DNA of 64,000 nt from assembly GCA_965231005.1 (NCBI GenBank), contig OZ246405.1, positions 674,709-738,708 of the forward strand, given 5' to 3'. Positions 25,401-51,203 of this stretch are shown piece after piece. The position numbers and the translations under genes were made by a program. The notes beneath the pieces were generated by a model, which was not told the DNA's origin, searched no databases, and saw only the letters and a list, made by a program, of their open reading frames with translations. The DNA is from an uncultured Gammaproteobacteria bacterium. GTDB taxonomy: Bacteria; Patescibacteriota; Patescibacteriia; Magasanikbacterales; UBA922. Within the stretch, counting starts at the first letter, position 1. The number at the start of each line of letters is the position of its first letter.

Positions 25401-26183
25401 ATGAAATACACATATAAATACATTGTAGAAAACAGATACGATCCAAATGCACACAAGGCAAGAAAGATCGGTGACAAGTATGTCCTTATGACTGCAATAT
25501 CAAAAGCACTTTCACCAGTTCCAGTGTATATCTTCCTTAATCTAGGTATTCATCCAGACACGATTACACTGATTAGCCTTCTTTTTATTCTTATTGGATC
25601 TGGAGCATTTGTTGTTGGCCTACCTCTTTTAGGAATTCTATTTTATCTTCTTTTTGCTTTGTTTGATTCAGTAGATGGAGATATGGCTCGATGCGCTGGT
25701 CCAACATCTTATGGGAGTGTTCTAGATTCATTTGGTGCCGACTTGTTTTATGCCTGTTCTCCCATTGCAGTAAGTTTTTATTTGTTTTCAAAAGAAATAG
25801 CAATCCTAAATATGGAATCTTCTTTTCTTTTACTTGTTGGGGCATTCATTTCAGCAACATTTATGGTTTATAGACTTATTAATGCAAAGGTATATAAGTT
25901 TATGAGTAATGCAAGTAATGGATCGTCAGACTATACGCAAGGAGCAAAAAAGAAGATACGCAGCGGAGTCTTAAAAAGCATTGTAAAAGTGTATAGGCAT
26001 GTGTTAGTAAGAGGTAATTTTTTTGCAGAACCAGGAATGCTATTTTGGTTTTCAATTCTTACCATATTTAAGGCCCATGAAGTGCTGGCTTGGTATTTAC
26101 TTGGAATTCTCATATACAATATCGGGTATTTATCTATGAATTTTTTTGGAACATATATATTTTTTAAAACACTAAGAAAATGA
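25401..26183 (+). CDS. CDP-alcohol phosphatidyltransferase-family membrane phosphotransferase
   Basis: 'DSVDGDMARCAGPTSYGSVLDSFGADLF' approximates DGxxAR...G...D...D. Multiple TM segments. Confidence 0.5.
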   Translation: MKYTYKYIVENRYDPNAHKARKIGDKYVLMTAISKALSPVPVYIFLNLGIHPDTITLISLLFILIGSGAFVVGLPLLGILFYLLFALFDSVDGDMARCAGPTSYGSVLDSFGADLFYACSPIAVSFYLFSKEIAILNMESSFLLLVGAFISATFMVYRLINAKVYKFMSNASNGSSDYTQGAKKKIRSGVLKSIVKVYRHVLVRGNFFAEPGMLFWFSILTIFKAHEVLAWYLLGILIYNIGYLSMNFFGTYIFFKTLRK

Positions 26184-27553
26184 AGACAATATTTGTAACA
26201 ATGAGCAAAGGTGGGTTGATAAGAAATTTTCTTCATACTGGGGTAATTGAAAAGATACTTCAAGAAGGATGTCGTGTTGTATTACTTACACCACAATATC
26301 AAGATAAAGAAATTTTTAAGCCCTTTATGCATGAAAATCTTGTGCTAGAGCCCTTACATAGATCAAAAATTCGTTTTGGAACGCTTATAGGGGAATTTTC
26401 AAAAGGTGCTGTCTTTAATAGAACAGTGAATTATCTATGGAGATTTCGTTTGCTTGGTGTTGCTCCAAGTAGACTATATTATCTTCCACGTATATTATTT
26501 TTGTCATGGTTAAGATGGATTCCTGGGTTCAAGACATGCATCCGTTGGATTGATATGATAATTAATCCACAAAAAGAACATGACTATCTATTTGAAAAAT
26601 ATAAACCCGATCTTATTTTTTCTACATCATGTAATGGATATGTTGATAGCGGTGTTATTAAAGGCGCAAAACGATTTGGTGTTAAAACAGTCGGGATGTT
26701 GCAAAGTTGGGATAATGTTTCGAAAATATTAACCAATACAAAGATGGATTATCTTTTTGTATGGAGTCCATTTATGAAACATCAAGCAATGACGCTTCAA
26801 GGATTCAAAGAATCAGAAATTGTTGTGACTGGTGTTCCGCAGTTTGATCATTACCACAAAAAAGAGAAGCTTTTAAGTAGAGAAGATTTCTGCAAAAAAT
26901 TTAATTTTGATCCACAGAAAAAAATTGTACTTTATGGATCAAGTGGTGGTGGGCCAGATCTTGAGCAAGAGTCAGATTATCCTGAAATCATCCATGGGTT
27001 TTTAGAACAAGGTCTTTTGCGTGATGTTCAAGTCATAGCAAGACCACATATCGGATACAAAAATGATGCAGACAAGTTTGACTGTTTGGCAACATATGAT
27101 GGTTTTGCAGTAGATAGGACAGACACACAAAGTCCAAAGTTTACTGATCATTGGGATCCAAGTGTGGAACATTTAAACCACTTGTACAATTCCCTTTATC
27201 ATGCAGATGTGTGTATCAATATTGCTTCAACACTCACACTTGATGCGGCTGTTTGTGGTACTCCTGTTATTAACATACGCTTTGATCGCAATGAGGTTGA
27301 TAATTATAATGATTCTTTGCGTAGACTTCATGATACAGGCTATATTCGTGCAGTTATGGCTATTGGAGCAACATGGATTGTAAATAGTAAAGATGAGTTT
27401 CTTGTTGCACTTAAGGCGGTTCTTGAAAAAAACATGCAAAAGGATTTGAATAGACTTATTAATGAATTTATATATAAAAATGATGGAAGATCTGCCGAGC
27501 GTATTGCAGATGCATTAGTAAAGATTGTCTCTAATGAGAAAATAACATCCTAA
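26180..27553 (+). CDS. GT-B-fold transferase, TagB/TagF (CDP-glycerol glycerophosphotransferase)-like or KpsC/KpsS-like; paralogue 1 of 4
   Basis: 'KKIVLYGSSGG', 'RPHIGY', C-terminal 'YHADVCINIASTLTLDAAVCGTPVI' shared with 33288..34709. ATGA overlap with the upstream gene. Confidence 0.4.
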   Translation: MKTIFVTMSKGGLIRNFLHTGVIEKILQEGCRVVLLTPQYQDKEIFKPFMHENLVLEPLHRSKIRFGTLIGEFSKGAVFNRTVNYLWRFRLLGVAPSRLYYLPRILFLSWLRWIPGFKTCIRWIDMIINPQKEHDYLFEKYKPDLIFSTSCNGYVDSGVIKGAKRFGVKTVGMLQSWDNVSKILTNTKMDYLFVWSPFMKHQAMTLQGFKESEIVVTGVPQFDHYHKKEKLLSREDFCKKFNFDPQKKIVLYGSSGGGPDLEQESDYPEIIHGFLEQGLLRDVQVIARPHIGYKNDADKFDCLATYDGFAVDRTDTQSPKFTDHWDPSVEHLNHLYNSLYHADVCINIASTLTLDAAVCGTPVINIRFDRNEVDNYNDSLRRLHDTGYIRAVMAIGATWIVNSKDEFLVALKAVLEKNMQKDLNRLINEFIYKNDGRSAERIADALVKIVSNEKITS

Positions 27554-27555
27554 GT

Positions 27556-29319
27556 ATGTGTGGAATCATTGGTGTTGCAGGAAACATTCCTGAGAAAAAA
27601 ATAATAGAGGAAGCGCGTGACTCCATACGTCATCGCGGTCCTGATGATGCTGGAATATATTATGCTCCAGAAGAAGGTGTTTCATTTGGACATCGTCGTC
27701 TTTCAATTATTGATTTGACTTCTGCTGGACATCAGCCATTTCATAGTAATAATGATCAATATATAGTTACATTTAATGGGGAGATATATAATTATTTAGA
27801 GTTGAAACAAGAATTAAAAGACGTCTATGAATTCAAGACTAATACAGACACAGAAGTTCTTTTAGCCGCATACCAACATTGGGGAGAAGCATGTTTAAAT
27901 AAATTTAACGGAATGTTTTCATTTGCCATCTGGGACAGAGAAAAAAAGAAATTATTTTGTGCACGAGATCGAGTAGGAATCAAACCATTTTATTATACTT
28001 ACAACAATGATACAATAGCCTTTGCATCAGAAATAAAAGCTCTCATTGCAATGGGCGTTGAGAAAAAAATCAATGAGGGAATTTTGTTTGACTATTTGCG
28101 ATATGGTTTATATGACCATACAGATGAAACTTTTTTTGAAGGTGTGCGCGTATTACCACCTGGACATTATCTAATTTTTAGTGGTGGTAAATTAGAAATA
28201 AAAAAATATTGGGATTTAGCAGATGTTAAAATTCAAAAAGATATATCAGAGGAAGAGGTCGAAAAGACATTCCGTGAACTTCTTCAAAATGCTATTGAAC
28301 TGCGTTTTCGTAGCGATGTAAAGGTAGGATTAAATTTGTCTAGTGGGCTTGATTCAAACAGTCTTTATCACTATGCACTTGCAGTGACAAATGAGGATCT
28401 TCATACATTTTCTATGTGTCTGCAGAGTGAGGAATATAATGAGTGCTCTCTTATTGACGAAACACTTTCAGAAGACAAAAAGAAGTTTTGGCACACATGT
28501 TTTCTTAGTCGCGATAGTGTATTGGCTGGTGCAGAGGATATGAATGAGATACAGGATCAGCCGTTTGGCGGAATTCCTACTATTTCATATAAATTTTTGA
28601 TCGAATTAGCACGTGATAATGGTGTAACTGTTCTACTAGAGGGACAAGGAGTGGATGAAATTCTTGCTGGTTATCCATATTATGCAATGGAACATAAAAA
28701 AGATCTCTTGAATGATACAAAAAGTGGTGGGAGTGTTGGTTTAGGACAAGATGGCACTCGTCTTATTAATGAAGAAATATTGTCAGAAGATTTTGTAAAT
28801 CGTAATGCAGGACGCACATTATCATTTTTTAAACCATTTACATCTCATCTTTTGAATGCACAGTACAGAGATATTCGGTATACAAAATTGCCACGTGTCT
28901 TGCGTTTTAATGATCATGTCACAATGCATCTTGGTAGGGAACTGCGTGTACCATTTTTAGATCATAGACTTATAGAATTTTGTTTTTCTCTTTCTGAGAA
29001 ATACAAAATCCATAATGGAACACATAAGGTTTTGCTTCGCAATATTATGGACAGTGTAATTCCAAAAAAAATTCAGAAAAAAAAGAAAAAAGTATTTGGT
29101 GCGATTCAGACAGAGTGGTTTAAAGGTTCAATGAAAGAAAAAATATATGCATTATTAGATTCATCATCTTTTAAAAGAAGAGATTATTGGAATCATGATC
29201 AATTAAAGAAAGAAGTAGACAAGTTTTTTGCTGGTGAACGTAATAATTCATTTTTTATCTGGCAATGCTTAAATTTGGAAATGTGGTTACAAAAATATAT
29301 CGACAAAGCAGAAATATGA
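27556..29319 (+). CDS. asparagine synthase-like glutamine amidotransferase (AsnB family), second copy
   Basis: 'MCGIIGVAGN', 'HRGPDDAGIYY', 'HRRLSIIDL', 'GLNLSSGLDS'. Confidence 0.8.
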   Translation: MCGIIGVAGNIPEKKIIEEARDSIRHRGPDDAGIYYAPEEGVSFGHRRLSIIDLTSAGHQPFHSNNDQYIVTFNGEIYNYLELKQELKDVYEFKTNTDTEVLLAAYQHWGEACLNKFNGMFSFAIWDREKKKLFCARDRVGIKPFYYTYNNDTIAFASEIKALIAMGVEKKINEGILFDYLRYGLYDHTDETFFEGVRVLPPGHYLIFSGGKLEIKKYWDLADVKIQKDISEEEVEKTFRELLQNAIELRFRSDVKVGLNLSSGLDSNSLYHYALAVTNEDLHTFSMCLQSEEYNECSLIDETLSEDKKKFWHTCFLSRDSVLAGAEDMNEIQDQPFGGIPTISYKFLIELARDNGVTVLLEGQGVDEILAGYPYYAMEHKKDLLNDTKSGGSVGLGQDGTRLINEEILSEDFVNRNAGRTLSFFKPFTSHLLNAQYRDIRYTKLPRVLRFNDHVTMHLGRELRVPFLDHRLIEFCFSLSEKYKIHNGTHKVLLRNIMDSVIPKKIQKKKKKVFGAIQTEWFKGSMKEKIYALLDSSSFKRRDYWNHDQLKKEVDKFFAGERNNSFFIWQCLNLEMWLQKYIDKAEI

Positions 29320-30443
29320 TTCAAATAGATCACAATACAATTTGGGAAAAAATGACGACTGGAGTTTTTGTTATTGCCGAGGCAGGGAAAGCATTTATTC
29401 AGACAAAAGAACGTCAGCCAGTCAAAGTTTATCTTGAGAATGCAAAGCAGCTTGTTGATAAAGCAGTTTGGGCAGGTGCTGATGCAATAAAATGGCAGAC
29501 TCATTTTGCAGAAGATGAACAGTTGCAAAGGGAAATTGAATCTCCACATTTTGTCGGTGCAGACAGGTATCAGTGGATTTTAAGAAATGAGCAGGATACT
29601 CCATACGAAACATTTTGGAAACCATTGAAAGAATATTCTGATTCCAAAAATATTGTGTTTATGACAACTCCTATGAGCAGAGGTGCAGCATTACGCGTCA
29701 AAGATTTGAAACCAAGTCTTTGGAAGATTGGCTCTGGTGATATTTTAGATTTTGTTTGTATGGATTTTTTACGTGACACAGGTGTACCTATTATTATGTC
29801 ATCTGGAATGAGTTCGCTTGAAGAGGTCAAGGCTGGAATTGAGTTTCTCTTGGAAAAAAATGATCGTGTTATGCTCATGCATGCACTTAGTAAATATCCA
29901 GGAGAGGCAGAAGAAGCAAACCTTGCGACAATACAATTATATAGAGAAATATTTCCAGAGGTTCCAATAGGATTTTCTGAAAATTCTGTAGGAATTGATC
30001 CAACATGTATAGCAGTTGCACTTGGTGTTACAGCTGTTGAAAAGCATTTTACCATTAGTCGAGATGTTTGGGGGGCAGATCACAAAGTGTCTTCCACACC
30101 AGAAGAGTTTAAAGAAATGGTTGAGACGATTAAAAAGATTACATCAGATCCATCTGAAAGAGAAAAGTGGTTAACACATCCCAAATTTGAAGATATCGTG
30201 GGTGTCAAGGAAAAAATAGTGCAAGAAGATGAAAAAGTATTTCGTCCGTTGTTTAGGAAATCACTTATGGCAGGCGATGATATCCCTGTTGGGACAGTTA
30301 TAACTGAAGAAATGATTTATGCTATGCGCCCACAACAGTTTGCAGGAGGTTTACCATCTGAAGCATATCCAAATATTCTTGGAAAAAGAGTCATTAAGAA
30401 ATTAAAAAAATTTGATCCAATTACCAATGATGTAATTGAATAA
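29316..30443 (+). CDS. NeuB-family nonulosonic acid synthase (PEP-condensing) with C-terminal SAF domain
   Basis: 'VFVIAEAGKAF...AGADAIKWQTH'. C-terminal SAF-like 'GDDIPVGTVITEEMIYAMRP'. ATGA overlap with asnB-like. Confidence 0.8.
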   Translation: MIQIDHNTIWEKMTTGVFVIAEAGKAFIQTKERQPVKVYLENAKQLVDKAVWAGADAIKWQTHFAEDEQLQREIESPHFVGADRYQWILRNEQDTPYETFWKPLKEYSDSKNIVFMTTPMSRGAALRVKDLKPSLWKIGSGDILDFVCMDFLRDTGVPIIMSSGMSSLEEVKAGIEFLLEKNDRVMLMHALSKYPGEAEEANLATIQLYREIFPEVPIGFSENSVGIDPTCIAVALGVTAVEKHFTISRDVWGADHKVSSTPEEFKEMVETIKKITSDPSEREKWLTHPKFEDIVGVKEKIVQEDEKVFRPLFRKSLMAGDDIPVGTVITEEMIYAMRPQQFAGGLPSEAYPNILGKRVIKKLKKFDPITNDVIE

Positions 30444-30453
30444 AAAGAGCATT

Positions 30454-31617
30454 ATGAATACTGAACGAAAAAGAAAAATTTGTTTTGTCATCACCTCCAA
30501 GATTCATTATGGAAGAAGTAAATTAATCCTAGAGGAATTGAGAAGAAGAGAAGATATTGAGTTACAGATTGTTGTCGGTGCATCAGCAATTCTTCCAAAC
30601 TATGGAGATGTCTTAAGTCTTTTGGAGCAGGATGGTTTTTCATGTGATGCAAAGATAACGATGACGGTTGAGGGTGGTACTTCTGTTTCAATGGCAAAAA
30701 CTGCAGGCCTAGGTATTGTTGAATTTGCAACTGCATTTGATAATTTACAGCCAGATATTGTGGTTCTTCGTGCTGATAGATATGAAGTACTTGCTGCTGC
30801 AATTGCTGCTGCATATCTCAATATAACAGTTGCACATATCGAGGGTGGAGATATATCAGGGACAATTGATGAAAGTGTGAGACATGCTATTACAAAGATT
30901 TCCCATATACATTTTCCTACAAATGAAGCGGCATTAAATCGCATTATCAAGATGGGGGAGAACCCGGCATATGTACATAATTTTGGTTGTCCAGGTGTGG
31001 AATTTGCAGTAGAAAATATGAATAATATTTCTAGTGACATAATTAATGCCATGGGAGTTGGTGATATTGTTGATATAGAAAAGCCATTCTTAGTTGTTAT
31101 GCAGCATCCTGTGACCACAGAAATACAAAATAATAGGAAAAATACAAGAGAAACCCTTAAAGCAATTCAGTATGTAGATATCCCTACAATTTGGTTTTGG
31201 CCAAACGTAGATGCAGGGACAGATGAGGTAAGTAAAGCGATTCGTGTGTTTAGAGAAATTGAAAATCCAAAAAATATTAGATTTCTTAAATACATCCGTG
31301 CTGAGGATTTCAATGCACTCATTGACAAATCTGTATGTCTTATCGGAAATTCGTCTGCTGGAATTAAAGAAGCTTCATATCTCGGAACTCCAGTAGTAAA
31401 TGTCGGTACAAGACAAAATGGGCGAATGCGTGGACACAATGTACTGGATGTTAACTATGATCAAGATGAAATAAAAAAAGCCATTGACATCCAAATTAAA
31501 CATGGTAAATTTTCATCAAGCGACATGTATTACAAGCCAGGTACGAGTAAAAACATTGTTGATATGCTAGCATCAGCACAGTTATATACGCAAAAGTTTT
31601 TCTTTGAAAAAGAATAA
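30454..31617 (+). CDS. UDP-N-acetylglucosamine 2-epimerase (hydrolysing), NeuC/LegG type
   Basis: 'HIEGGDISGTIDESVRHAITKISHIHFPT'. Track start at 30436 is TTG; first ATG is at 30454. Confidence 0.8.
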   Translation: MNTERKRKICFVITSKIHYGRSKLILEELRRREDIELQIVVGASAILPNYGDVLSLLEQDGFSCDAKITMTVEGGTSVSMAKTAGLGIVEFATAFDNLQPDIVVLRADRYEVLAAAIAAAYLNITVAHIEGGDISGTIDESVRHAITKISHIHFPTNEAALNRIIKMGENPAYVHNFGCPGVEFAVENMNNISSDIINAMGVGDIVDIEKPFLVVMQHPVTTEIQNNRKNTRETLKAIQYVDIPTIWFWPNVDAGTDEVSKAIRVFREIENPKNIRFLKYIRAEDFNALIDKSVCLIGNSSAGIKEASYLGTPVVNVGTRQNGRMRGHNVLDVNYDQDEIKKAIDIQIKHGKFSSSDMYYKPGTSKNIVDMLASAQLYTQKFFFEKE

Positions 31618-31627
31618 GTATTATTTT

Positions 31628-32332
31628 ATGTATAAAAATAAAAAAATTCTAGGTATTATAACTGCTCGTGGTGGTTCAAAAGGTATCCCAAAAAAGAATA
31701 TCAAGTTGTTGGCAGGGAAACCTCTTGTTGCATACACAATTAAAGCAGCAGCAAAGAGTGAGTATTTGACACGAACAATTGTTTCAACTGACAATCAGGA
31801 AATTGCTGATATTGCGGCCGAATATGACGCCGATGTACCATTTATGCGTCCTGCGGAATACGCAACAGATAACGCAACTTCACTTGATGTGGTAAAGCAT
31901 GCAGTATCTACACTAGAAAAAAAAGGCGAAAATTATGATTATGTTATGATTCTGCAACCAACATCTCCACTGCGTACACCACGTGATATAGATTCATGTA
32001 TTGAAAAAATTGTTGATACAAATGCAGACTCAGTAATGAGTATGATGGAGCTGCAGGATTTTTCCATAAAAAAATTGAAAAAAATCAAAGATGATCAAAT
32101 ATTTCCTTTTTTAGAAGAAGAAGGCGCTCAATCTAGTATGCGACAAGATTTGCCAAAAGTATTCAAAAGAAATTGTGCAATTTATTTGTCAAAAGTATCC
32201 AATGTTAAAAATAATGATTTATTTGGAAATGTCTCTCGACCATATATGATGCCTTATGAAAGATCTATTGACATAAACGAACAAATCGATTTTGATTTGG
32301 CTGAATTTTTTATTATCAAGAATGGTTTATGA
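31628..32332 (+). CDS. acylneuraminate cytidylyltransferase family (CMP-ulosonic acid synthetase, NeuA-like)
   Basis: 'ILGIITARGGSKGIPKKNIKLLAGKPLVAYTI'. ATG at 31628; the track start is TTG. Confidence 0.8.
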   Translation: MYKNKKILGIITARGGSKGIPKKNIKLLAGKPLVAYTIKAAAKSEYLTRTIVSTDNQEIADIAAEYDADVPFMRPAEYATDNATSLDVVKHAVSTLEKKGENYDYVMILQPTSPLRTPRDIDSCIEKIVDTNADSVMSMMELQDFSIKKLKKIKDDQIFPFLEEEGAQSSMRQDLPKVFKRNCAIYLSKVSNVKNNDLFGNVSRPYMMPYERSIDINEQIDFDLAEFFIIKNGL

Positions 32333-33291
32333 ATTACAAAATATTAAATACAATTGGAAACACATTTACCTTTGAGGCAAAAGAAATTCTTGAGCGTATT
32401 GGGAGTATTGAATATTGCAATATAGAACAAGAACAATTGAAGGAAAAAATTGTAGATGTTGATATAGCAGTAATTGGTCTTGGACTAACTTTTGATAAAG
32501 AAGTCTTAGCGTTAGCTAATAATTTGAAAGTAATAGCTACAGCGACAACAGGGCTTGATCATATTGATTGTGAGTATGCAGAAGAGAAGGGTATTCAAGT
32601 ATTAAGTCTTCGGGATGAAACGTCATTTTTAAACACTATAACTGGTACTGCTGAACTTACTTTCGGTCTTATGATTGATCTAATGAGAGGAATTTCTTCT
32701 AGCTTTGAATCTGTGAAAGAATATCATTGGGATAGAGAACAATTTCGAGGTTTTGAGGCAAAAGGAAAGAATCTTGGTATTGTTGGTTTTGGAAGACTTG
32801 GCAAAATGATGGCCCAGTATGGGAAAGCATTTGGAATGAATGTGCTAGTATCTGATCCAAATATAGATTTATCCGAATCTGAACAGGCAAGAGTGTCCGT
32901 TGTGTCCTTTGACGATTTGGTGGAAAAAAGCGATGTTATTTCAATTCATGTGCATTTTAATGAAGATACTAAAGATATGTTTCATTCAGATGTGTTTAAA
33001 AAAATGAAAAGATCAGCCTATATAATAAATACGTCGAGAGGAAAAATTGTAAATGAATCTGACCTACTTTTTGCTCTCCAAGAAAAGGAAATTGCTGGGT
33101 ATGGTTCAGATGTTCTTGCAGATGAACTTGAATTTTCGTCAGGGTTTTCAAATCATCCATTAGTTGAATATGCTAAGATAAATACAAATTGCATTATCCT
33201 TCCTCATATAGGTGGTATGACTGAAGAGTCAAGAGCAGCAACAGATATATTTATTGCTAAAAAATTGAAGAAATTTATCCTTTCATCATGA
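32329..33291 (+). CDS. D-isomer-specific 2-hydroxyacid dehydrogenase, second copy, embedded in an ulosonic-acid module
   Basis: 'GIVGFGRLGKMMAQYG', 'NTSRGKIVNESDLLFALQEKEIAGYGSDV', 'LPHIGGMT'. ATGA overlaps at both ends. Confidence 0.75.
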   Translation: MNYKILNTIGNTFTFEAKEILERIGSIEYCNIEQEQLKEKIVDVDIAVIGLGLTFDKEVLALANNLKVIATATTGLDHIDCEYAEEKGIQVLSLRDETSFLNTITGTAELTFGLMIDLMRGISSSFESVKEYHWDREQFRGFEAKGKNLGIVGFGRLGKMMAQYGKAFGMNVLVSDPNIDLSESEQARVSVVSFDDLVEKSDVISIHVHFNEDTKDMFHSDVFKKMKRSAYIINTSRGKIVNESDLLFALQEKEIAGYGSDVLADELEFSSGFSNHPLVEYAKINTNCIILPHIGGMTEESRAATDIFIAKKLKKFILSS

Positions 33292-34718: not shown

Positions 34719-35447
34719 ATGTATATGACTGCACACAAGGTATTAGCCTATATTCCTGCCCGAGCAGGTTCAAAACGACTTCCTGGAAAAAACATAAAAG
34801 ATTTTATGGGAAAGCCGTTGATTGCGTATGCAATTGAGCAAGCACTTGCAATGCCTTTTATTGATCGTGTTATTGTTGATACTGAGTCAGAAGAAATTGC
34901 AGCGATTGCAAAGCAATATGGTGCAGATGTTCCTTTTTTGCGACCAAATGAGCTTGCACAAGATGATTCAAATGTGATTGATACGATTATCTATACACTT
35001 GATCGTTTGAAAGAGGATGAAGGATATGTTCCAACACATTTACTCATTTTGCAGACAACATCACCACTACGAGAACCAGAGGACATTGAACGTTCTTGGA
35101 AAAAAATATTAGAGACAGATGCAACAGCAGTCATAACGGTATGCCAAATACATCCAAAATTGTATAATGTGGACGATGAAGATACGTTGCATTTGGTAAA
35201 TAATTCAGACAATACGTCAACAAATGCACAGGCATGGGATGATGGATTTATTCCAAATGGTGGAGTCTTCATTACAGCAGTTCCAGAACTGTACAGTGAA
35301 CGGACAGTAATGACAAAAAACACAAAGGCAGTTGTATGTCCAAATTGGCGCTCAGTTGATGTTGATATTCCAGAAGAATGGGCAATGGCAGAGGTACTGT
35401 ATAAACATAGAGATGACATTAAAAAACATATTCTAGAATTAGATTAA
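34719..35447 (+). CDS. acylneuraminate cytidylyltransferase family (CMP-ulosonic acid synthetase), copy 2
   Basis: '[31 protein letters not shown]'. Confidence 0.8.
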
Positions 35448-36493: not shown

Positions 36494-36498
36494 ATTGT

Positions 36499-43730: not shown

Positions 43731-43768
43731 CAGATCTGTTATTATAAGTGGTTAATACAGTTAATATT

Positions 43769-44449
43769 ATGAATATTATTGCAATCATCCCTGCTCGTGG
43801 GGGATCAAAGCGGATTGAATCAAAAAATCTTATTGTTGTTGGTGGAAAACCTCTTATTGCGCATAGTATTGAACATGGGATTCAGTCTGCGTTTGTTGAT
43901 AGAGTAATTGTCTCTACAGAAGATGCAGAAATTGCTCGTGTGTCAAAAGAGTATGGTGCAGACGTTATTGATCGTCCTATTGAATTAGCAAATGACATGG
44001 CAAGCAGTGAATCAGCATTAGTTCATGTTCTTGATGAAATTGAAAAACGTGGTGAGCAAATGCCAGATCTTGTTGTATTTATGCAATGTACATCACCAGT
44101 AAGAAAGGCAGATGACATAGACAATGCAGTAAAAACTCTTATAGACGAAGATGCAGACTCTCTTTTATCAGCAGCGAGAAATTTTGGTCTTATTTGGTCA
44201 AAAGGTGAACAAGGGGTACGATCATTAACCTATGACCATAAGACTCGCAAACGCGAGCAAGATATGGATGAACAATATAGAGAAAATGGATCAATTTATG
44301 TTTTCAAACCAGAAATACTTCGTGAACACAATAATCGACTTGGAAAAAAGATTGCAATATATGAAATGGATATGTGGTCTTCTTTTCAAGTAGATGCTCC
44401 AGAAGATGTAGTATTGATTAATTGGATTTTAAAAAATAAAGAAATATAA
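43769..44449 (+). CDS. acylneuraminate cytidylyltransferase family (CMP-ulosonic acid synthetase), copy 3
   Basis: 'IIAIIPARGGSKRIESKNLIVVGGKPLIAHSI'. ATG at 43769; the track start is GTG. Confidence 0.75.
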   Translation: MNIIAIIPARGGSKRIESKNLIVVGGKPLIAHSIEHGIQSAFVDRVIVSTEDAEIARVSKEYGADVIDRPIELANDMASSESALVHVLDEIEKRGEQMPDLVVFMQCTSPVRKADDIDNAVKTLIDEDADSLLSAARNFGLIWSKGEQGVRSLTYDHKTRKREQDMDEQYRENGSIYVFKPEILREHNNRLGKKIAIYEMDMWSSFQVDAPEDVVLINWILKNKEI

Positions 44450-44451
44450 CT

Positions 44452-45285
44452 ATGTCTGCATTAGATACTATTTTTAATATAAAAGGGAAAACAATCTTGA
44501 TTACAGGTGCTACTGGTTTTTTTGGTAAATACATGACCAAGACGTATTTAGATGTTGGTGCAGATGTGATTCTTATGGGGCGTAAAGAAGCACTTGCTGA
44601 GCAAGTCGCATCATACAATAGCGAGTATGGATCTGATCGTGCCTTTGGATATGTTGTTGATTTTTATGATAAAGATATACTTGAAAAAACATTAGAAGAA
44701 ATTGTTTCTAAGCATGATATTGATGTTGTGGTAAACAATGCATATGATTTGAGTGAAAAAACAGGATTTAATACTACAGAGGGAACACTTGAAAAGACAT
44801 CATATGAAATGTGGTCTCATGCATTTGAGTCAGGTATTTATTGGGCAGTTCTCATAACACAAATTGTTGGTGAACATTTTAGAAAAAAGGGAAGTGGAAA
44901 TATTATCAATTTGAGTTCAATGTATGGAATTGTTTCACCACATCCAAATTTATACGAAGGAAAGAAATTTTTTAATCCGCCAACTTATAGCGTGCAAAAA
45001 GCTGGTATAGGTGCGTTAACAAAATACACAGCATCATTTTGGGGGAAACATGGTATTCGATGTAATGCAATCGCTCCTGGTCCTTTTTCCAATACTGAAA
45101 CACAAACAAGTAATAGTGTTGATAAGAATGATCCATTTTTAGATCGATTAAAACAAAAAACAGTTTTACAAAAATTAGGTCATCCAAATGATCTTTCAGG
45201 TGCACTCATCTATCTTGCAAGTGATGCATCAAGCTATGTCACAGGACATACGCTTGTCATAGATGGAGGTTGGACCATAACATAA
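44452..45285 (+). CDS. short-chain dehydrogenase/reductase
   Basis: 'KTILITGATGFFGKYM'; 'YSVQKAGIGALTKY' (YxxxK). Confidence 0.7.
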   Translation: MSALDTIFNIKGKTILITGATGFFGKYMTKTYLDVGADVILMGRKEALAEQVASYNSEYGSDRAFGYVVDFYDKDILEKTLEEIVSKHDIDVVVNNAYDLSEKTGFNTTEGTLEKTSYEMWSHAFESGIYWAVLITQIVGEHFRKKGSGNIINLSSMYGIVSPHPNLYEGKKFFNPPTYSVQKAGIGALTKYTASFWGKHGIRCNAIAPGPFSNTETQTSNSVDKNDPFLDRLKQKTVLQKLGHPNDLSGALIYLASDASSYVTGHTLVIDGGWTIT

Positions 45286-45290
45286 TTACT

Positions 45291-46115
45291 ATGATAGGAA
45301 TTATACAAGGAAGACTAACACAGCCTATTGATGGAAAAATTCAATGTTTTCCATGGGGATTTTGGGAAAAAGAATTTGAAACAGCAAAGGAAATTGGAAT
45401 AGATGCAATTGGCTGGATTTTTGAAGAAGATCGCTGGCAGGAAAATCCACTTTGGACAGAAGATGGAAGGAAAAAATTAAAAGAAATTATAGATCAGACT
45501 GGAGTTATTATTGAATATCTTTGCGCTGATTATTTTATGGAACATCCATTTATTCGTGTAAGTGAAGAAGAATATAAGACCACATGTACAATGCTTTCAG
45601 ATGTTATCGAACGAGCTGCTGATTTGGGTATAAAAGGAATTGAACTTCCAATGGTGGATAATTCAAAGATTGATAATGAACAAGAAAAAGAAAAAGTGAT
45701 TGAAACACTGAGAACATACATTCCACTTATGGAAAAGTACAATATGGAAATAAGTATTGAATCTTCTTTGCCACCACACGATCTTAAAGATTTATTAGAA
45801 CGCTTAGATCATCCATTGTTCTGCATTACATATGATTCAGGAAACAGTTCTTCAATGGGATATGACACAACAGAAGAAATTGAAGCGTTTGGAACATGGA
45901 TCCACAATGTACACATAAAAGATAGATTGTTACATGGAACAACTGTTCAACTTGGAACAGGAGATGCAGATTTTGACAAAACATTTTCAGCACTACAAGC
46001 GATTGGGTATAAAGGTTCATTTACTTTGCAAGCTGCCCGAGATGGTGAAGCAGTAGAAAATACAAAAAATCAATTAGCATTTTTACACAAATACATAGAA
46101 AAGTATATTCAATAG
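45291..46115 (+). CDS. sugar-phosphate isomerase/epimerase (xylose-isomerase-like TIM barrel), putative
   Basis: Composition and size. Acidic metal-site-like residues 'IELPMVD...ISIESS...HNVHIKD'. Weak. Confidence 0.35.
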   Translation: MIGIIQGRLTQPIDGKIQCFPWGFWEKEFETAKEIGIDAIGWIFEEDRWQENPLWTEDGRKKLKEIIDQTGVIIEYLCADYFMEHPFIRVSEEEYKTTCTMLSDVIERAADLGIKGIELPMVDNSKIDNEQEKEKVIETLRTYIPLMEKYNMEISIESSLPPHDLKDLLERLDHPLFCITYDSGNSSSMGYDTTEEIEAFGTWIHNVHIKDRLLHGTTVQLGTGDADFDKTFSALQAIGYKGSFTLQAARDGEAVENTKNQLAFLHKYIEKYIQ

Positions 46116-46116
46116 T

Positions 46117-46890
46117 ATGGAATTAGGTTTGCAAGACAAAGTAGCATTAATAAGTGGTTCTTCACGAGGTATTGGATATGCTGTTGCTACATCAATGTTA
46201 GAACATGGTGCACGGGTTATTATTAATGGGAGAAATAAAGAACAGCTTGATACAGCATATGACGCATTAGTGGCAGCACATGGAAGTGACAATGTTTTTT
46301 CTTTTCTTGGTGACCTTACAAAAGAAGATGATATCAACCGCTGTGTGCAGTTCATTCAGCAGCAGTGTTCAGGACTTGATATCCTTGTTTCCAATATTGG
46401 TTCTGGAAAATCACAGCCTGGTGCTGAAGTAGCATTGGAAGAATGGAAACGGATGTTTGATGTTAATTTTTTTGGTAGTGTTTCTCTTATTCAGGCAATG
46501 ATTTCTATGATGAAAGAAAAGGCGCAAGGATCGATTGTTTGCATTAGTTCAATTGCAGGTCTTGAAACAATTGGAGCACCACTTCCATATGAGGCAGCAA
46601 AAGCAGCACTCATTTCATATGTTCAAGCACTTGCAAAACAGCTCGCGCCAAATATTAGAGTAAATAGTGTTGCCCCTGGAAATATTTTCTTTGCTGGAGG
46701 AAGATGGGAAGAGTTAGTCAACCAAGATTCGTCTGGTGTTCAAAACATGTTAGACAGCAAGGTTCCTATGAAACGATTTGGAACACCAGAAGAAATTGCA
46801 TCAGTTGTTTCGTTTCTTTCATCTCAGCAAGCATCATTTGTAACAGGTGCTACCTGGGTTGCTGATGGGGGACAAACCATAAGTAGATAA
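46117..46890 (+). CDS. short-chain dehydrogenase/reductase
   Basis: 'VALISGSSRGIGYAVA'; 'YEAAKAAL'. Confidence 0.75.
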   Translation: MELGLQDKVALISGSSRGIGYAVATSMLEHGARVIINGRNKEQLDTAYDALVAAHGSDNVFSFLGDLTKEDDINRCVQFIQQQCSGLDILVSNIGSGKSQPGAEVALEEWKRMFDVNFFGSVSLIQAMISMMKEKAQGSIVCISSIAGLETIGAPLPYEAAKAALISYVQALAKQLAPNIRVNSVAPGNIFFAGGRWEELVNQDSSGVQNMLDSKVPMKRFGTPEEIASVVSFLSSQQASFVTGATWVADGGQTISR

Positions 46891-46900
46891 TATAAATACT

Positions 46901-47734
46901 ATGAAACAAGTTCATGATATGTTCAATCTCTCAGGTAAAGTTGCTGTTATTACAGGAGGTGCAGGACTGTTAGGAGTGAAACATGCAGAAGCAATTGCAG
47001 AATATGGTGGAATACCAGTGCTCTTTGACATCAATGAAACACAAGCAAAAGAACGAGCAAAAGAAATTGCTGAGAAATATCAAGTCCAAGCAATTGGTAT
47101 TGGTGGTGACATCACAGATAAACAAGATATTGAACGAGTACGTGATGAATTATTAAAAGAGTTTTCTCACATTGATATTCTCATCAATAATGCAGCAAAT
47201 GATCCAAAAGTAAAAGAAGAAGAAAACCAAATGCCTTGGTCACGATTTGAACAGTTTTCACGAGATGTATGGGATGGTGATATTGCCGTTGGATTGACTG
47301 GAGCATTTCTCTGTGCACAGATCTTTGGAAATGAAATGGCAAAACAGAAAAAGGGTGTGATTCTAAATATTGCCTCTGATTTAGGTGTGATAGCGCCAGA
47401 CCAACGAATTTACAGAAAAGAAAATACTGCTGATGATATGCAACCAGTAAAGCCAGTCACATACTCAGTTGTAAAACATGGACTTATTGGTTTAACAAAA
47501 TATTTAGCAACATATTGGGCAGACAATGGAATTCGGGTAAATGCTATTTCACCCGGGGGAGTGTATAATGGACAACCAGATGCATTTGTTGAAAAATTGG
47601 CACAATTGATCCCACTTGGGAGGATGGCAGATAAGGATGAGTATAAAGCAGCCATTATTTTCCTTGTTTCTGATGCATCAAGCTATATGACAGGTGCAAA
47701 TTTGAATATTGATGGAGGGCGCACTTGTTGGTAA
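46901..47734 (+). CDS. short-chain dehydrogenase/reductase
   Basis: 'VAVITGGAGLLGVKHA'; 'YSVVKHGLIGLTKY'. Confidence 0.75.
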   Translation: MKQVHDMFNLSGKVAVITGGAGLLGVKHAEAIAEYGGIPVLFDINETQAKERAKEIAEKYQVQAIGIGGDITDKQDIERVRDELLKEFSHIDILINNAANDPKVKEEENQMPWSRFEQFSRDVWDGDIAVGLTGAFLCAQIFGNEMAKQKKGVILNIASDLGVIAPDQRIYRKENTADDMQPVKPVTYSVVKHGLIGLTKYLATYWADNGIRVNAISPGGVYNGQPDAFVEKLAQLIPLGRMADKDEYKAAIIFLVSDASSYMTGANLNIDGGRTCW

Positions 47735-47766
47735 TATTAATTATATTTGAACCTTTTTGATACTTA

Positions 47767-47795
47767 TTGACACCTTTTGTAGTGGATGATACTAT
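47767..47795 (+). promoter_or_regulatory. sigma70-like promoter TTGACA-N17-TACTAT
   Basis: TTGACA at 47767-47772, 17-nt spacer, TACTAT at 47790-47795. Lies in a 100-bp gap before 47835. Confidence 0.4.
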
Positions 47796-47834
47796 ATTAA
47801 TTAGTAAATAAACTATCACAGAATATTAGATTTT

Positions 47835-48494
47835 ATGAGCAAAATTCACCCAATTCACGAGCATCTTTTAGACCGATACCCACATCTTGATCGATGTAAA
47901 GATGATATTTTAAATGCATTTCACCTTATCCTTGATTGCTTCAACAACGGAGGAAAACTTTTGGTAATGGGAAATGGTGGATCAAGTGCAGATGCAGAAC
48001 ACATTTGTGCTGAATTAACAAAAGGATGTGTGTTGCAAAGACAACTAAAAGAGAGTGAGCGAGATTTATTTGGAGGTGACGTCGGTATTCTTCCTCAAAT
48101 GTTGCAAAATGGTTTACCAGCATTTTCGCTTGGAGTGTCTCATTCACTCATTAGCGCGTTTATGAATGACGTCCACCCTGAATTTATTTTTGCACAACAG
48201 ATTTGGGTGCATGCAAAAGAAAACGATGTTGTATTGGCATTGTCTACCTCAGGAAATTCACGAAACGTTGTTGCAGGAATTCATACTGCAAAAGCAAGAA
48301 ATATTAAATCAATTGTACTTACTGGTGGAAATCAAAATAATAGATCATCACAATTAGCAGATGTTAGCATTTGTGTTCCAGAATATGAGGTGCATAAAAT
48401 TCAAGAGCTACATCTTCCAGTTTATCATTATTTATGTATGGCAATTGAACATGAGTTTTTTCATGAACATAAAGGATCACATTATCAACAATAA
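47835..48494 (+). CDS. SIS-domain sugar-phosphate isomerase (GmhA-like)
   Basis: 'LLVMGNGGSSADAEHICAEL' and 'VVLALSTSGNSRNVV'. Confidence 0.7.
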   Translation: MSKIHPIHEHLLDRYPHLDRCKDDILNAFHLILDCFNNGGKLLVMGNGGSSADAEHICAELTKGCVLQRQLKESERDLFGGDVGILPQMLQNGLPAFSLGVSHSLISAFMNDVHPEFIFAQQIWVHAKENDVVLALSTSGNSRNVVAGIHTAKARNIKSIVLTGGNQNNRSSQLADVSICVPEYEVHKIQELHLPVYHYLCMAIEHEFFHEHKGSHYQQ

Positions 48495-48519
48495 TTTTTT
48501 TATATTTTAATAAAAACAT

Positions 48520-49359
48520 ATGTCAGCATTTATCATCGCGGAAATAGGAATCAATCATAATGGAAGTTTAGATATTGCAAAGCAGCTTATTGATGGAGCA
48601 AAGCTTGCAGGTTGTGATGCAGTAAAGTTTCAAAAACGAACATTGGAAACAGTATATTCAAAAGAAGATTTAGATAGAGAAAGACAATCACCTTGGGGAA
48701 CAACAAATCGCGAGCAAAAACAAGGATTAGAATTTTCAATTGAGGATTACAAAGAAATTGATAAATACTGTAAAGAAAAAAAGATTGAATGGTTTTTTTC
48801 AGCTTGGGATGTACAAAGTCAAAAAGACATGAGAGTGTTTGATCTAAAATACAATAAAGTTGCATCTCCAATGTTAGGACATACTGAACTTCTTAAAGAA
48901 ATTGCTTCAGAAGGAAAACACACATTTATATCAACAGGCATGTCTTCGCTCGAGGAAATAGATAAGGCAGTTGAAATCTTCAAAAATGCAAACTGTCCAT
49001 TTGAACTTATGCATTGCAACAGTACATATCCTATGAAGAATGAAGATGCAAATCTTCGTGTGATGGACGTTTTGAAGGAACGGTATGGTTGCGATGTTGG
49101 GTATAGTGGTCATGAAGGTGGAAGGATTGTTTCTTTCATGGCATGCGTACTTGGTGCAACATCTCTTGAAAGACATATTACATTAAACAAAGCAATGTAT
49201 GGTTCAGATCAAGCAGCATCTATTTTGATTTACGATTTGTGTAAGTTGGTAAATGATGTTCGTGGTATTGATGCTATTATGGGTGACGGAAAAAAAGAGA
49301 TTCTTGAATCTGAAATGCCGGCAAGAAAAAAACTTCGTTATTACGAACAACAATCATAA
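48520..49359 (+). CDS. NeuB-family ulosonic acid (phosphate) synthase, short form without SAF domain
   Basis: 'FIIAEIGINHNGSLDIAKQLIDGAKLAGCDAVKFQKRT'. Only 279 aa (TIM barrel only). Confidence 0.7.
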   Translation: MSAFIIAEIGINHNGSLDIAKQLIDGAKLAGCDAVKFQKRTLETVYSKEDLDRERQSPWGTTNREQKQGLEFSIEDYKEIDKYCKEKKIEWFFSAWDVQSQKDMRVFDLKYNKVASPMLGHTELLKEIASEGKHTFISTGMSSLEEIDKAVEIFKNANCPFELMHCNSTYPMKNEDANLRVMDVLKERYGCDVGYSGHEGGRIVSFMACVLGATSLERHITLNKAMYGSDQAASILIYDLCKLVNDVRGIDAIMGDGKKEILESEMPARKKLRYYEQQS

Positions 49360-49367
49360 GTAGATAT

Positions 49368-49886
49368 ATGTCTCAAAAAGATATTGTAGAAAAATTAAAA
49401 TTGGTTCAGCTACTTGTTTTAGATTTTGATGGTGTTTTTACAGATGGCTGTGTGTATGTAAATCAAGATGGTGTTGAATCAGTAAAATGTAGCCGAAAGG
49501 ATGGTCTTGGTATTAATCTTTTACACAAGCATGGCCTTGAAGCATTCGTTATCTCAAAAGAAATAAATCCAGTTGTTGCAGCACGTTGCAAAAAATTAGG
49601 GATTCCATGTGTTCAGGGAGTCCACGATAGTGATGGTAAACTAGAAATATTAAAACGAATATTAGATGAAAAGGGTCTTTCTTCAGATCAAATTGCGTAT
49701 ATGGGTGACGATATTAATGACTATGCGTGCATTGAATATGCTGGAGTAGGAATCACAACAAAGGATGGACATGAGTCGCTGCGAGAAATTGCATTATATA
49801 CTACAAATGCGTGTGGAGGAGATCATGCAGTGCGCGAAGTTTGTGAGAAAATATTAAAAGCCAAGGGTATCGTATTGGAATTTTAA
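49368..49886 (+). CDS. HAD-family ulosonate-phosphate phosphatase (KdsC/YrbI-like)
   Basis: 'LLVLDFDGVFTDGCVYV', 'YMGDDINDYAC', 'GGDHAVREVCEKIL' are KdsC-type blocks. Confidence 0.75.
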   Translation: MSQKDIVEKLKLVQLLVLDFDGVFTDGCVYVNQDGVESVKCSRKDGLGINLLHKHGLEAFVISKEINPVVAARCKKLGIPCVQGVHDSDGKLEILKRILDEKGLSSDQIAYMGDDINDYACIEYAGVGITTKDGHESLREIALYTTNACGGDHAVREVCEKILKAKGIVLEF

Positions 49887-49958
49887 TTTTCGTTCTGCGG
49901 TGTAAATAATGCTGCTCATTTTCTTAGATGGAGGATAGGAGGACTGATTGTAATCTTT

Positions 49959-51203
49959 ATGAAGAAGCAAAAGATTTTCTTTATTCCAACATATATAGGT
50001 CCGATTAAACACTACGAGCGTTTGATTCCTTATCTTCAAGATACATATGATGTTGAATTTTTGATTGTACGTCCAGAGAGTTCTCAACGGAAGGAATCCG
50101 TGGAATATTGCAAAGAAAAAAAATACACATACCATATTATTGACAAAGGAATTACAAGAGATATTGGTATTCGAATCCCCTTTTTCACACCGATTAAAAA
50201 GAGATACGAACATGCTATAGCTTGTCGTAATTTTTTAAAAACACATGAGGCCGCAAAAATTATTTCCCACAAGTCATCATCTCCATATGACTCTCTTTTT
50301 AGAGAGGCAAATAGACTTGGAATAGAAACGATTGTGCTTCAATGGTCATCGGCTGCGAGTATAATAGAACAAGACAAGCGTGTAAATTCTTTCGTTCAGA
50401 AGACGTACTTGTTCTTTTTAAAGGTAATTTTTGCTTTACTGGATCTTTTTTACAAAGAATCTCGTTTTGGATATAAAACAGCCATTCCTAAAAAAATTGG
50501 GGTTTTCGACAAAATAAAAAAAGAGTATTATATCGGAGAAGGGTTTGATCCCAAAATCATAGATATTGTTGGGTCTATTGATTTTCAATTATTGTATGAA
50601 TTAAGAAAAAGAATAGACACAGATTCACGTTTGAGAGAGTCATTGCTCGAAAAATATGGACTTTCTAAAAATAAGATTAATATTGTCGTCATTCTGTATC
50701 GTTTTTATATGGCGCCAGACAAAAAATACAAGATGACAATTGATGAGCATGTCTCACATTATTATGATTTGTTTAAGAGTATCCGAGAAGTTTTTTCGGA
50801 GGAGGAAGCAAACGTTTTGCTGAAGATGCATCCAACAGAAAATAGAATGCCCGAGCTGTATCATTCGTATAAAGAGCTTGGTGTACAATTATTTTATGGT
50901 GATGCAAAAACAGATGAGCTTGTATGTTTGTCTGATCTCTATATTTCTGAGCCTGCATCAAGTGTAAACTATATGGTACTCGGAAGTAATACACCATCAA
51001 TTTTTGTTAATCTTTCCGAATTTGAATTTCTCAATAATCGAGCACAATATTTTAACATTACCCATATAGCAACTAGTCGAGAAGGATTTATCAGAAAATT
51101 AAAAGAGTTTAAGAATGGAACACTTGAAAGACAATACAACACAGACGATATTGAACTAAGATCCATTGATAAGACAGTATCTTTTATCAAAAAGAATATA
51201 TGA
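49959..51203 (+). CDS. GT-B-fold TagF/KpsC-like transferase; paralogue 4 of 4 (putative)
   Basis: 'NIVVILYRFYMAPDKK' resembles the TagF 'ILYAPT' block. Similar size and context. Confidence 0.3.
   Translation: MKKQKIFFIPTYIGPIKHYERLIPYLQDTYDVEFLIVRPESSQRKESVEYCKEKKYTYHIIDKGITRDIGIRIPFFTPIKKRYEHAIACRNFLKTHEAAKIISHKSSSPYDSLFREANRLGIETIVLQWSSAASIIEQDKRVNSFVQKTYLFFLKVIFALLDLFYKESRFGYKTAIPKKIGVFDKIKKEYYIGEGFDPKIIDIVGSIDFQLLYELRKRIDTDSRLRESLLEKYGLSKNKINIVVILYRFYMAPDKKYKMTIDEHVSHYYDLFKSIREVFSEEEANVLLKMHPTENRMPELYHSYKELGVQLFYGDAKTDELVCLSDLYISEPASSVNYMVLGSNTPSIFVNLSEFEFLNNRAQYFNITHIATSREGFIRKLKEFKNGTLERQYNTDDIELRSIDKTVSFIKKNI

Follow-up and report, generated by a model that had tools for sequence, protein, structure and literature searches.

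The 64,000-nucleotide stretch analysed here (positions 674,709 to 738,708 of contig OZ246405.1; hereafter, the window) is almost wholly occupied by a single conserved cell-surface glycan locus of approximately 60 kb from a bacterium of the Patescibacteria (candidate phyla radiation, CPR) type. Its GC content is close to 34% and nearly all of its genes lie on the + strand. Four open reading frames (ORFs) of that locus, all on the + strand, are the subject of this report: A (26180-27553, 457 aa), B (33288-34709, 473 aa), C (41471-42997, 508 aa) and D (49959-51203, 414 aa). The original prediction, made from the letters of the sequence, held that they are paralogous glycosyltransferases resembling TagF and KpsC, each beside a NeuA/NeuB pair and each installing one of four ulosonic acids activated with cytidine monophosphate (CMP). 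The coordinates given for these ORFs, of 414-508 aa, were exact, and the four are real, conserved genes, all with full-length homologues in public data (198, 32 and 23 matches for A, C and D, respectively). Identical proteins are encoded on a 1,232,850-bp contig and on a 128,873-bp metagenome contig of ENA. The homologues that bear a name come mostly from metagenome-assembled genomes (MAGs) of Patescibacteria/Parcubacteria or Magasanikbacteria. No transmembrane segment was predicted in A, B, C or D.

The kinship of these proteins is not that of four paralogues. A and B are 27.7% identical over their full length (BLASTP, E 5e-59), while C and D gave no significant BLASTP match to A, to B or to one another. 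At the profile level (hhalign), the A/B family is linked to the D family (probability 93%, E 2.7e-7, 255 columns) and, through the C-terminal domain only, to the C family (96%, E 1.1e-8, 110 columns). A relation between C and D was rejected at this level (2.4%, E 0.019, 266 columns). Because only A and B find each other in BLASTP, and C and D are linked to them only by profile, the four are best described, to judge from their sequences, as three families of one GT-B sub-branch that would use cytidine nucleotides. The C-terminal block that was thought to be common to all ('YH[AS]DVxxNIASTLTLDA') is present in A ('LYHADVCINIASTLTLDA') and B ('MYHSDVVVNIASTLTLDA'), but C and D have at that place merely an analogous nucleotide-binding stretch ('ATIAGSTAIEA' in C, 'SEPASSVNYM' in D). 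The other motif that had been pointed out, 'FPLHAQPE', was found in C. Structural models are consistent with the placement of all four among soluble GT-B proteins of the cytidine-nucleotide-using branch, as predicted: the AlphaFold2 (AF2) models of A and D, with predicted local distance difference test (pLDDT) scores of 93.9 and 90.2, show the feature of the GT-B superfamily, that is, two Rossmann-like domains with the nucleotide site in the C-terminal one. Foldseek returned 353 PDB matches for A and 307 for D at E of at most 1e-3, and the best 50 listed for each are all GT-B proteins.

A and B both exceed the gathering score (22.1 bits) of Pfam Glyphos_transf (PF04464), with 41.9 and 38.6 bits, whereas C and D match neither this model nor the TagF family. 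Their best curated match is NCBIfam NF046086, BFO_1060_trans (65 bits, E 7e-18, for A; 62.7 bits, E 3e-17, for B), compared with 22 and 28 bits for the TarF model. Additionally, BFO_1060_trans is the best match of 8 of 10 A/B-like proteins from other loci and phyla (35-61 bits) and the sole match of five, the other two having no NCBIfam match. The cut-off of this model is 200 bits, so neither A nor B reaches membership, and both match only the N-terminal half of it; A and B therefore form a sister group of the BFO_1060 family rather than part of it. BFO_1060 is a protein of Tannerella forsythia FDC 92A2 identical to TFUB4_00887, and the O-glycan of knock-outs of TFUB4_00887 or of Tanf_01245 no longer ends in its derivative of legionaminic or pseudaminic acid; the authors described the transferases as TagB-superfamily/GT-B proteins (PMC5420450). 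A and B resemble these Tannerella proteins, soluble GT-B enzymes of about 445 aa with a TagB-superfamily signature encoded beside the genes for CMP-pseudaminic or CMP-legionaminic acid (CMP-Pse/CMP-Leg). A location beside CMP-nonulosonate genes is shared by B, B-like proteins and distant A-like proteins, but not by the true orthologues of A, whose conserved neighbourhood is a different one (see below).

Similarity to the teichoic acid enzymes TagF, TarL, TarF and TagB is also evident, in the GT-B fold, in the Glyphos_transf match and in aligned motifs of the C-terminal domain. A profile of 33 A/B family members did not retrieve any PDB chain, TagF and TarL included, even at E of at most 10. 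When the sequences of TagF (3l7i, residues 435-677) and TarL (8va1) were recovered for alignment, an 88-sequence A/B-like profile aligned with these fragments at an hhalign probability of 94.9% (E 4.5e-8). R288-P-H290 of A falls on R582-M-H584 of TagF, 'NIAST..D' (with S350-T351) on 'TDYSS..D' and 'KKIVLYGS' on the TagF-type 'KKVIMYAPT'; consequently, the residues expected to bind the nucleotide, whose loss would have spoken against the prediction, are kept. R288 is retained in 87 of the 88 family members and H290 is His in 65, and near-invariant positions comprise W177-D178, G218-x-P-Q-F-D223, R288, S350-T351 and D/E355. The catalytic histidines of Staphylococcus epidermidis TagF are H444 and H584. 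No conserved His matching the former was found at any N-domain position of the 88-sequence family; the nearest look-alike of TagF W443-H444 is the invariant W177-D178, and hhalign, working with TagF residues 435-677 only, sets H444 against T149 of A or against no aligned residue, depending on the settings.

A and B differ from TagF and TarL also in that the locus has no genes for the synthesis of CDP-glycerol (CDP, cytidine diphosphate) or CDP-ribitol. Pfam scans took in every window ORF of at least 150 aa, and no TagD-, TarD-, TarI- or TarJ-type domain was found in these; five ORFs of 78-133 aa were judged by their first 60 residues only. An ordinary CDP-glycerol poly(glycerol phosphate) polymerase was rejected for A and B, given the lack of TagD-type genes in the scanned ORFs, the preference for BFO_1060_trans over TarF and a first catalytic His that is not conserved; the absence of any TagF or TarL match in the PDB search agrees with this. 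In A-family proteins of other metagenomes, a CDP-OH_P_transf, a TylF-type methyltransferase, a GT2 or an AAA_18 kinase-like domain is fused to the transferase (P0040, P0112, P0113, P0096, P0052 and P0034).

C is a divergent KpsC/KpsS-type (Capsule_synth) GT-B protein and a candidate CMP-ulosonate transferase. Among its 31 listed homologues (the window protein left out), 21 have a precomputed match to Capsule_synth (PF05159), and the profile of the C family retrieves KpsC from the PDB (8fuw, 8fux and 6mgc at E of about 5e-11, 6mgb at 2.3e-9), followed by WbbB (5fa0, 3.5e-5). These alignments cover approximately 70 residues of the C-terminal domain, and the N-terminal 300 residues of C have no detectable match. 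KpsC, KpsS and WbbB are retaining transferases that depend on CMP-Kdo (Kdo, 3-deoxy-D-manno-oct-2-ulosonic acid) and belong to GT107 and GT99 (PMC12887879), and the KpsS homologue KpsS1 is, according to its citation there, a pseudaminyltransferase of GT118 (Walklett et al. 2024, cited in PMC12887879). C has the nucleotide-binding motif 'G(S/T)xxxEA' in common with them, and the consensus of its family reads 'KEHP'. The proline of the latter was lost in one subclade of the family only, the window protein and its closest relatives having HK, HG, HA or HR. Q321-P322-E323 are invariant in the C family and presumably stand in place of the 'PLQVxxD' motif of KpsC/KpsS-type proteins. As in KpsC/KpsS systems, an ABC exporter and genes of CMP-ulosonate synthesis accompany C; the exporter beside C is a fused one of the MsbA/PglK type, unlike the KpsMT type of those systems.

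D has no Pfam or NCBIfam match, belongs to a small unannotated family with a modelled GT-B fold and is a candidate CMP-ulosonate transferase. Among 1.84 billion representative proteins, its profile found only 198 relatives at E of at most 1e-3 and 94 at E of at most 1e-30. The most distant of them pass Glyphos_transf, one also has weak matches to A-2_8-polyST and Capsule_synth, and weak Epimerase_2 matches also occur among distant relatives. By sequence, the D profile gave only noise against the PDB, with nothing relevant, and its comparison with the TagF fragment was not significant (hhalign probability 0.9%). The first glycosyltransferase in its Foldseek list is the GT38 polysialyltransferase of Mannheimia haemolytica (5wcn/5wc6; E 8.5e-12, TM 0.60), which shares the GT-B fold and has CDP bound in 5wcn. 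In D, H291 is nearly invariant and P292 invariant, a pair that resembles the HP motif of sialyltransferases. D is only 14% identical to it and has no PF07388 match, the sole link being structural. No GT29, GT38, GT42, GT52, GT80 or Maf domain was detected by Pfam in A-D or in the other scanned ORFs of the window, in agreement with the earlier statement that no classical sialyltransferase motif was recognizable.

In the window, each of the four lies close to NeuB or NeuA-type genes, as predicted: A is one gene from a NeuB gene, CTP_transf_3 (NeuA-type) and NeuB directly follow B, a CTP_transf_3 lies two genes from C, and D stands between a NeuB-HAD pair and a CTP_transf_3. Altogether there are four NeuB genes (29265, 35447, 48520 and 52562) and four CTP_transf_3 genes (31604, 34719, 43748 and 51200), distributed over four ulosonate modules on the + strand. 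Module 1 (29265..33291) comprises, by Pfam, NeuB (29265-30443), Epimerase_2 (30436-31617), CTP_transf_3 (31604-32332) and 2-Hacid_dh (32329-33291), with stop and start codons that overlap and continue into B. Module 2 (34719..39560) holds CTP_transf_3, NeuB, Epimerase_2, an NAD-epimerase and a Polysacc_synt_2 dehydratase; its NeuB (35447) scores 391 bits on the NeuB_NnaB model, whose cut-off is 399.65. The window thus contains two Epimerase_2 genes and one Polysacc_synt_2 dehydratase. Next, directly upstream of C, comes the exporter (39567..41357, + strand; ABC_tran match), a fusion of transmembrane and nucleotide-binding domains (TMD-NBD) with four hydrophobic stretches that span several predicted transmembrane helices.

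Module 3 (43002..49886) encodes a methyltransferase-like protein, CTP_transf_3 (43748), a short-chain dehydrogenase/reductase (SDR), AP_endonuc_2, two further SDRs, a SIS protein (47835), NeuB (48520) and a HAD phosphatase (49368), and module 4 (51200..53413) encodes CTP_transf_3 (51200), an IMPase-family phosphatase (51879) and NeuB (52562). The NeuB proteins of these two modules (48520-49359 and 52562-53413) do not have the C-terminal SAF domain and are paired with the HAD (49368) and IMPase (51879) phosphatases and the SIS protein (47835). Because of this pairing with phosphatases and an isomerase, the SAF-less NeuBs suggest the synthesis of ulosonates from sugar phosphates (Kdn/Kdo-like) rather than by a ManNAc-type route.

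The association with ulosonate genes was followed through approximately 90 loci, each with up to 10 kb of flanking sequence, in which ORFs were scored with hidden Markov models (HMMs) built from the window's own proteins; locus counts refer to non-redundant members (at most 90% identity) flanked on either side by 3 kb or more. A CTP_transf_3 gene was found in 20 of 28 A-like, 21 of 23 B-like, all 5 C and 10 of 11 D loci (directly adjacent in 7 of the latter), and NeuB in 17, 15, 5 and 7 of them, respectively; the ABC exporter adjoins C in 3 of its 5 loci. Even around the most distant A/B-like relatives (L040-L076), a few of which still belong to Patescibacteria, NeuB or CTP_transf_3 lies within 10 kb in 17 of 37 loci. 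By chance, one of these genes would be expected nearby in 2% of loci, a rough upper bound that is our own estimate and not a computed figure. Outside Patescibacteria, the association is seen in Planctomycetota (Pirellulaceae), Acidobacteriota, Bacteroidota, Pelagibacteraceae, Nanoarchaeota, Woesearchaeota and Thaumarchaeota. As to co-variation with NeuA/NeuB, which had been proposed as a check, B-like, C and D genes co-localise with CTP_transf_3 and NeuB in many genomes and phyla, whereas the true A orthologues do not co-vary with them.

Gene order is also conserved. The succession NeuB, Epimerase_2, CTP_transf_3, 2-Hacid_dh and an A/B-like gene recurs across phyla, whereas other arrangements concern C and D more closely. 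For instance, the window and a Magasanikbacteria locus (L080) share C, CTP_transf_3, SDRs, SIS, NeuB, HAD, D and CTP_transf_3 in near-identical order, and D, CTP_transf_3, IMPase and NeuB follow one another in the window, L085 and L093. Exporter, C, CTP_transf_3 and NeuB are contiguous in an unrelated 4.7-Mb genome (L077), and the order B, exporter, C is found in L004, L005 and L021, so that the adjacency of exporter and C, with or without B, is kept in four loci. Orthologues of B (43-49% identity) stand in the order B, exporter, C or adjoin D and NeuB/CTP_transf_3 modules. The whole locus type, with A, B, exporter, C, D, CTP_transf_3/NeuB modules and CDP-OH_P_transf, is syntenic across several Parcubacteria and Magasanikbacteria MAGs (the window, L004, L005, L079 and L080). 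In some MAGs with this locus type, HpcH/HpaI aldolase and ILVD/EDD dehydratase genes lie beside extra CTP_transf_3 genes, which hints at further CMP-activated 2-keto-3-deoxy acids.

A stands apart in this respect. Its own module (14081..29319, + strand) comprises 2-Hacid_dh (14081), NTP_transferase (15058), Ldh_2, TylF methyltransferases (16908 and 19668), an AsnB-like protein (17698), an SDR, a DUF4147/MOFRL glycerate kinase (21409), KduI, a GH57-like protein, CDP-OH_P_transf (25401), A itself and a second AsnB-like protein (27556). The CDP-OH_P_transf gene shares its final 4 bp with the beginning of A, and its product has at least five transmembrane segments and a CDP-alcohol motif that is essentially intact apart from an additional residue ahead of the final Asp. 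When homologues are sorted by identity, the true orthologues of A (42-56%) separate from the remaining A/B-like proteins (at most 37%). In the eight fully flanked loci of these orthologues, NeuB occurs once (L011, 7.6 kb off) and CTP_transf_3 never, while NTP_transferase is found in six, the DUF4147/MOFRL glycerate kinase in five and an AsnB-like gene just downstream in five; genes for KduI, a GH57-like protein and CDP-OH_P_transf accompany A in several of them. The gene set of the A module recurs round A orthologues in L001, L003, L015, L016 and L019, and in P0040, P0112 and P0113 the A orthologue is fused to CDP-OH_P_transf.

In a Parcubacteria locus (L003), NTP_transferase and glycerate kinase form one 705-aa fusion protein (13939-16056), whereas in the window they are separate (15058-15816 and 21409-22743), the window NTP_transferase being 40% identical to the N-domain of the fusion. 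The existence of this fusion points to NDP-glycerate (CDP-glycerate-like) as the product. In Caulobacter, CDP-glycerate has been demonstrated as a metabolite, made from CTP and 2- or 3-phosphoglycerate by CpgD, an enzyme of the NTP_transferase family (PMC12275187). The likeness to CpgD, which serves the synthesis of ceramide diphosphoglycerate in Caulobacter crescentus, is one of family and implied product; in place of the ceramide phosphate of the CpgD pathway, a glycan or a lipid primer would serve as acceptor in this locus. As A orthologues mostly have no NeuB or CTP_transf_3 but do have NTP_transferase, glycerate kinase and AsnB genes nearby, and given the two gene fusions, A is part of a module separate from those of NeuA/NeuB, and its nearness to the NeuB gene at 29265 is not conserved.

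The explanation that we consider best, with a confidence that is about even, is that B, C and D transfer CMP-ulosonates and that A forms part of a separate, apparently CDP-glycerate-related module, the four representing three GT-B families. The original prediction is supported in part. The glycan would be started on polyprenyl phosphate by the initiating phosphoglycosyl transferase Bac_transf (59735..61126, - strand; PF02397, 195.7 bits), a gene that also closes locus L080, and it would then be extended in the cytoplasm and exported by the fused ABC transporter. To judge from gene content, the four NeuB and four CTP_transf_3 proteins would make four CMP-activated ulosonic acids, two by a UDP-GlcNAc/NeuC-type route and two by a Kdn/Kdo-like route that passes through sugar phosphates and needs a phosphatase to take the phosphate off, and B, C and D would most likely transfer such acids onto the growing glycan. 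NTP_transferase and the glycerate 2-kinase probably make CDP-glycerate, as CpgD does in Caulobacter. Since the A module holds a CDP-alcohol phosphotransferase, a pair of AsnB-like proteins, NTP_transferase and glycerate 2-kinase, it is more probable that A installs a phosphoglycerate-type unit, or works on what the CDP-alcohol phosphotransferase makes, than that it serves one NeuA/NeuB pair, and amidation of the carboxylate may fall to the AsnB-like proteins beside it. The cytidine phosphate may be bound in A and B by the R-P-H and S-T motifs of the C-terminal domain, as it is by the aligned TagF residues, with D178 or D223 as the likely base. C may use a KpsC-type double displacement, for which E323 is a candidate acidic residue.

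Several observations weigh against this explanation. The functions of A-D and of their close homologues are predictions from computed fold, family and neighbourhood, and, where the identity of a donor is concerned, co-localisation within so large a glycan island carries little weight. C scores 14.5 bits on Capsule_synth, below the gathering score of 20, and has H358-K359 (42542-42547) where the consensus of its family is H-P ('KEHP'). The top 13 Foldseek matches of D are UDP-GlcNAc/UDP-sugar 2-epimerases (E of about 1e-12), and the CTP_transf_3 genes beside D are divergent types that differ between loci and are not orthologous. As a consequence of the latter, 'one transferase per CMP-synthetase type' was rejected, and the idea of one family with one member per donor is not supported, given this divergence, seen in most loci, and the division into three families. 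Regarding A, it lies one gene from NeuB in the window, and counting it gives 4:4:4 transferases, NeuB and CTP_transf_3. Even so, proteins of the A clade might be nonulosonate transferases, as distant A-like proteins (at most 37% identity) are associated with NeuB and CTP_transf_3, directly adjoining both in L021, L025, L031 and L035. Additionally, the CDP-alcohol phosphotransferase alone could consume CDP-glycerate, and in L079 NTP_transferase, glycerate kinase and CDP-OH_P_transf are present with no A within 10 kb.

In one alternative, all four proteins, A included, are CMP-ulosonate transferases, one dedicated to each of the four CMP-acids, a reading that we regard as unlikely. It accounts for the equal numbers of NeuB, CTP_transf_3 and GT-B candidates in the window, for the fact that A and B are both closest to the nonulosonate transferases of the BFO_1060 family, and for the position of the A-like genes in L021, L025, L031 and L035. 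The AsnB-like protein beside A could also be counted in its favour, if it is a PseA-like amidotransferase making the acetamidino group on a nonulosonate. By contrast, true A orthologues have neither NeuB nor CTP_transf_3 within 10 kb in 7 of 8 fully flanked loci and co-vary instead with the CDP-alcohol/NTP-transferase module, to whose CDP-OH_P_transf some are fused. Moreover, the numbers of transferase, NeuB and CTP_transf_3 genes do not follow 1:1:1 in L004, L005 and L079, and the CTP_transf_3 types that adjoin D vary by locus.

It is rather improbable that A and B are teichoic-acid-like phosphotransferases that transfer an alditol-phosphate or acid-phosphate, such as phosphoglycerate, from CDP donors, leaving only C, and perhaps D, to act on CMP-ulosonates. 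The scores of A and B above the Glyphos_transf gathering score, the alignment of the A/B-like profile with TagF/TarL, which sets R288/H290 on R582/H584, and the presence in the locus of a CDP-alcohol phosphotransferase and a probable CDP-glycerate pathway would all fit such enzymes. However, B and most B-like genes are embedded in NeuB/CTP_transf_3 modules (CTP_transf_3 in 21 of 23 loci), BFO_1060_trans outscores TarF (65/63 vs 22/28 bits), no conserved His corresponds to TagF H444, and no TagD, TarI or TarJ gene is present among the scanned ORFs.

Finally, D could be a 2-epimerase-like or hydrolase-like GT-B enzyme acting on sugar nucleotides in the synthesis of ulosonate precursors, and not a transferase, as its epimerase-led Foldseek list, the weak Epimerase_2 matches of distant relatives and the lack of an Epimerase_2 gene in the adjoining modules 3 and 4 might indicate, but this is very improbable, given that the A model yields the same epimerase-dominated list, and the ranking therefore reflects the generic GT-B fold, that D itself has no Epimerase_2 match, that its profile aligns with the TagF/BFO_1060-like A/B family (93%), that distant relatives pass Glyphos_transf and, in one case, also weakly match A-2_8-polyST and Capsule_synth, and that the SIS isomerase and phosphatase chemistry of modules 3 and 4 needs no 2-epimerase.

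A bolder extension of the preferred explanation, in which B, C and D transfer CMP-ulosonates and A belongs to the CDP-glycerate-type module, may also be considered, although as a whole it has little probability. D would found a new, largely Patescibacteria glycosyltransferase family for a Kdn/Kdo-like CMP-ulosonate made by the SAF-less NeuB and phosphatase, while the A clade would be a TagF-superfamily branch with Asp in place of the catalytic His. The latter would use CDP-glycerate, with subsequent amidation by AsnB, and would build a phosphoglycerate/phosphoglyceramide polymer resembling a teichoic acid, so that an ultra-small episymbiont would carry a surface glycan with up to four ulosonic acids.

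Other features of the window lie outside the modules. GT4 transferases and UDP-sugar dehydrogenases are also encoded in it, and no Rfam RNA family was found in the window. Between the last NeuB gene and the UDP-sugar dehydrogenases, two genes on the - strand (53520-55610) have 52-60% GC in a 34% GC, mostly + strand locus; one encodes a hydrophobic, probably membrane, protein of 312 aa with no Pfam match, the product of the other, about 335 aa long, gives just a weak TPR match, and the segment looks like a foreign insertion. At 5103-13632, a gene set resembles a Dlt/AlgI-type O-acylation system but has an FkbH (glyceryl-ACP; ACP, acyl carrier protein) loader. By Pfam it includes an FkbH-like protein (5474), an SDR, MBOAT (8686) and two GDSL proteins, and the ORFs at 5103, 7282 and 7524, read from their first 60 residues only, are phosphopantetheinyl-transferase-like, ACP-like and MaoC-like. 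In addition, an ORF of 82 aa (13798-14046) in a 450-bp gap in the middle of the locus resembles an excisionase/MerR-type helix-turn-helix protein, also from its first 60 residues only.

There is published precedent for TagB-like nonulosonate transferases in T. forsythia (PMC5420450) and for a KpsS-like one in GT118 (as cited in PMC12887879). The present locus adds to this the breadth of the BFO_1060-related family and of its link to NeuA/NeuB across phyla, the family adjoining these genes in many, among them SAR11, Planctomycetota, Acidobacteriota and DPANN archaea. Also new are the divergent clade of KpsC/KpsS type with its fused ABC exporter, the D family, which has no annotation and is the most novel element, and the A module with its putative CDP-glycerate chemistry. 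In the literature searched, no paper was found that ties Patescibacteria to nonulosonic acids. To our knowledge, few transferases have been described for nonulosonic acids other than sialic acid, namely Maf, the TagB-like proteins of Tannerella, KpsS1 (GT118) and FlmG, and CAZy is still founding families of ulosonate transferases (GT118, GT140). The genes described here are concrete candidates for expression and assay, and the A module points to the use of CDP-glycerate outside the sphingolipids of Caulobacter. For the organism itself, approximately 5% of a 1.2-Mb genome is apparently spent on a glycan with four ulosonic acids, and it is presumably through their cell surface that episymbiotic Patescibacteria meet the host.

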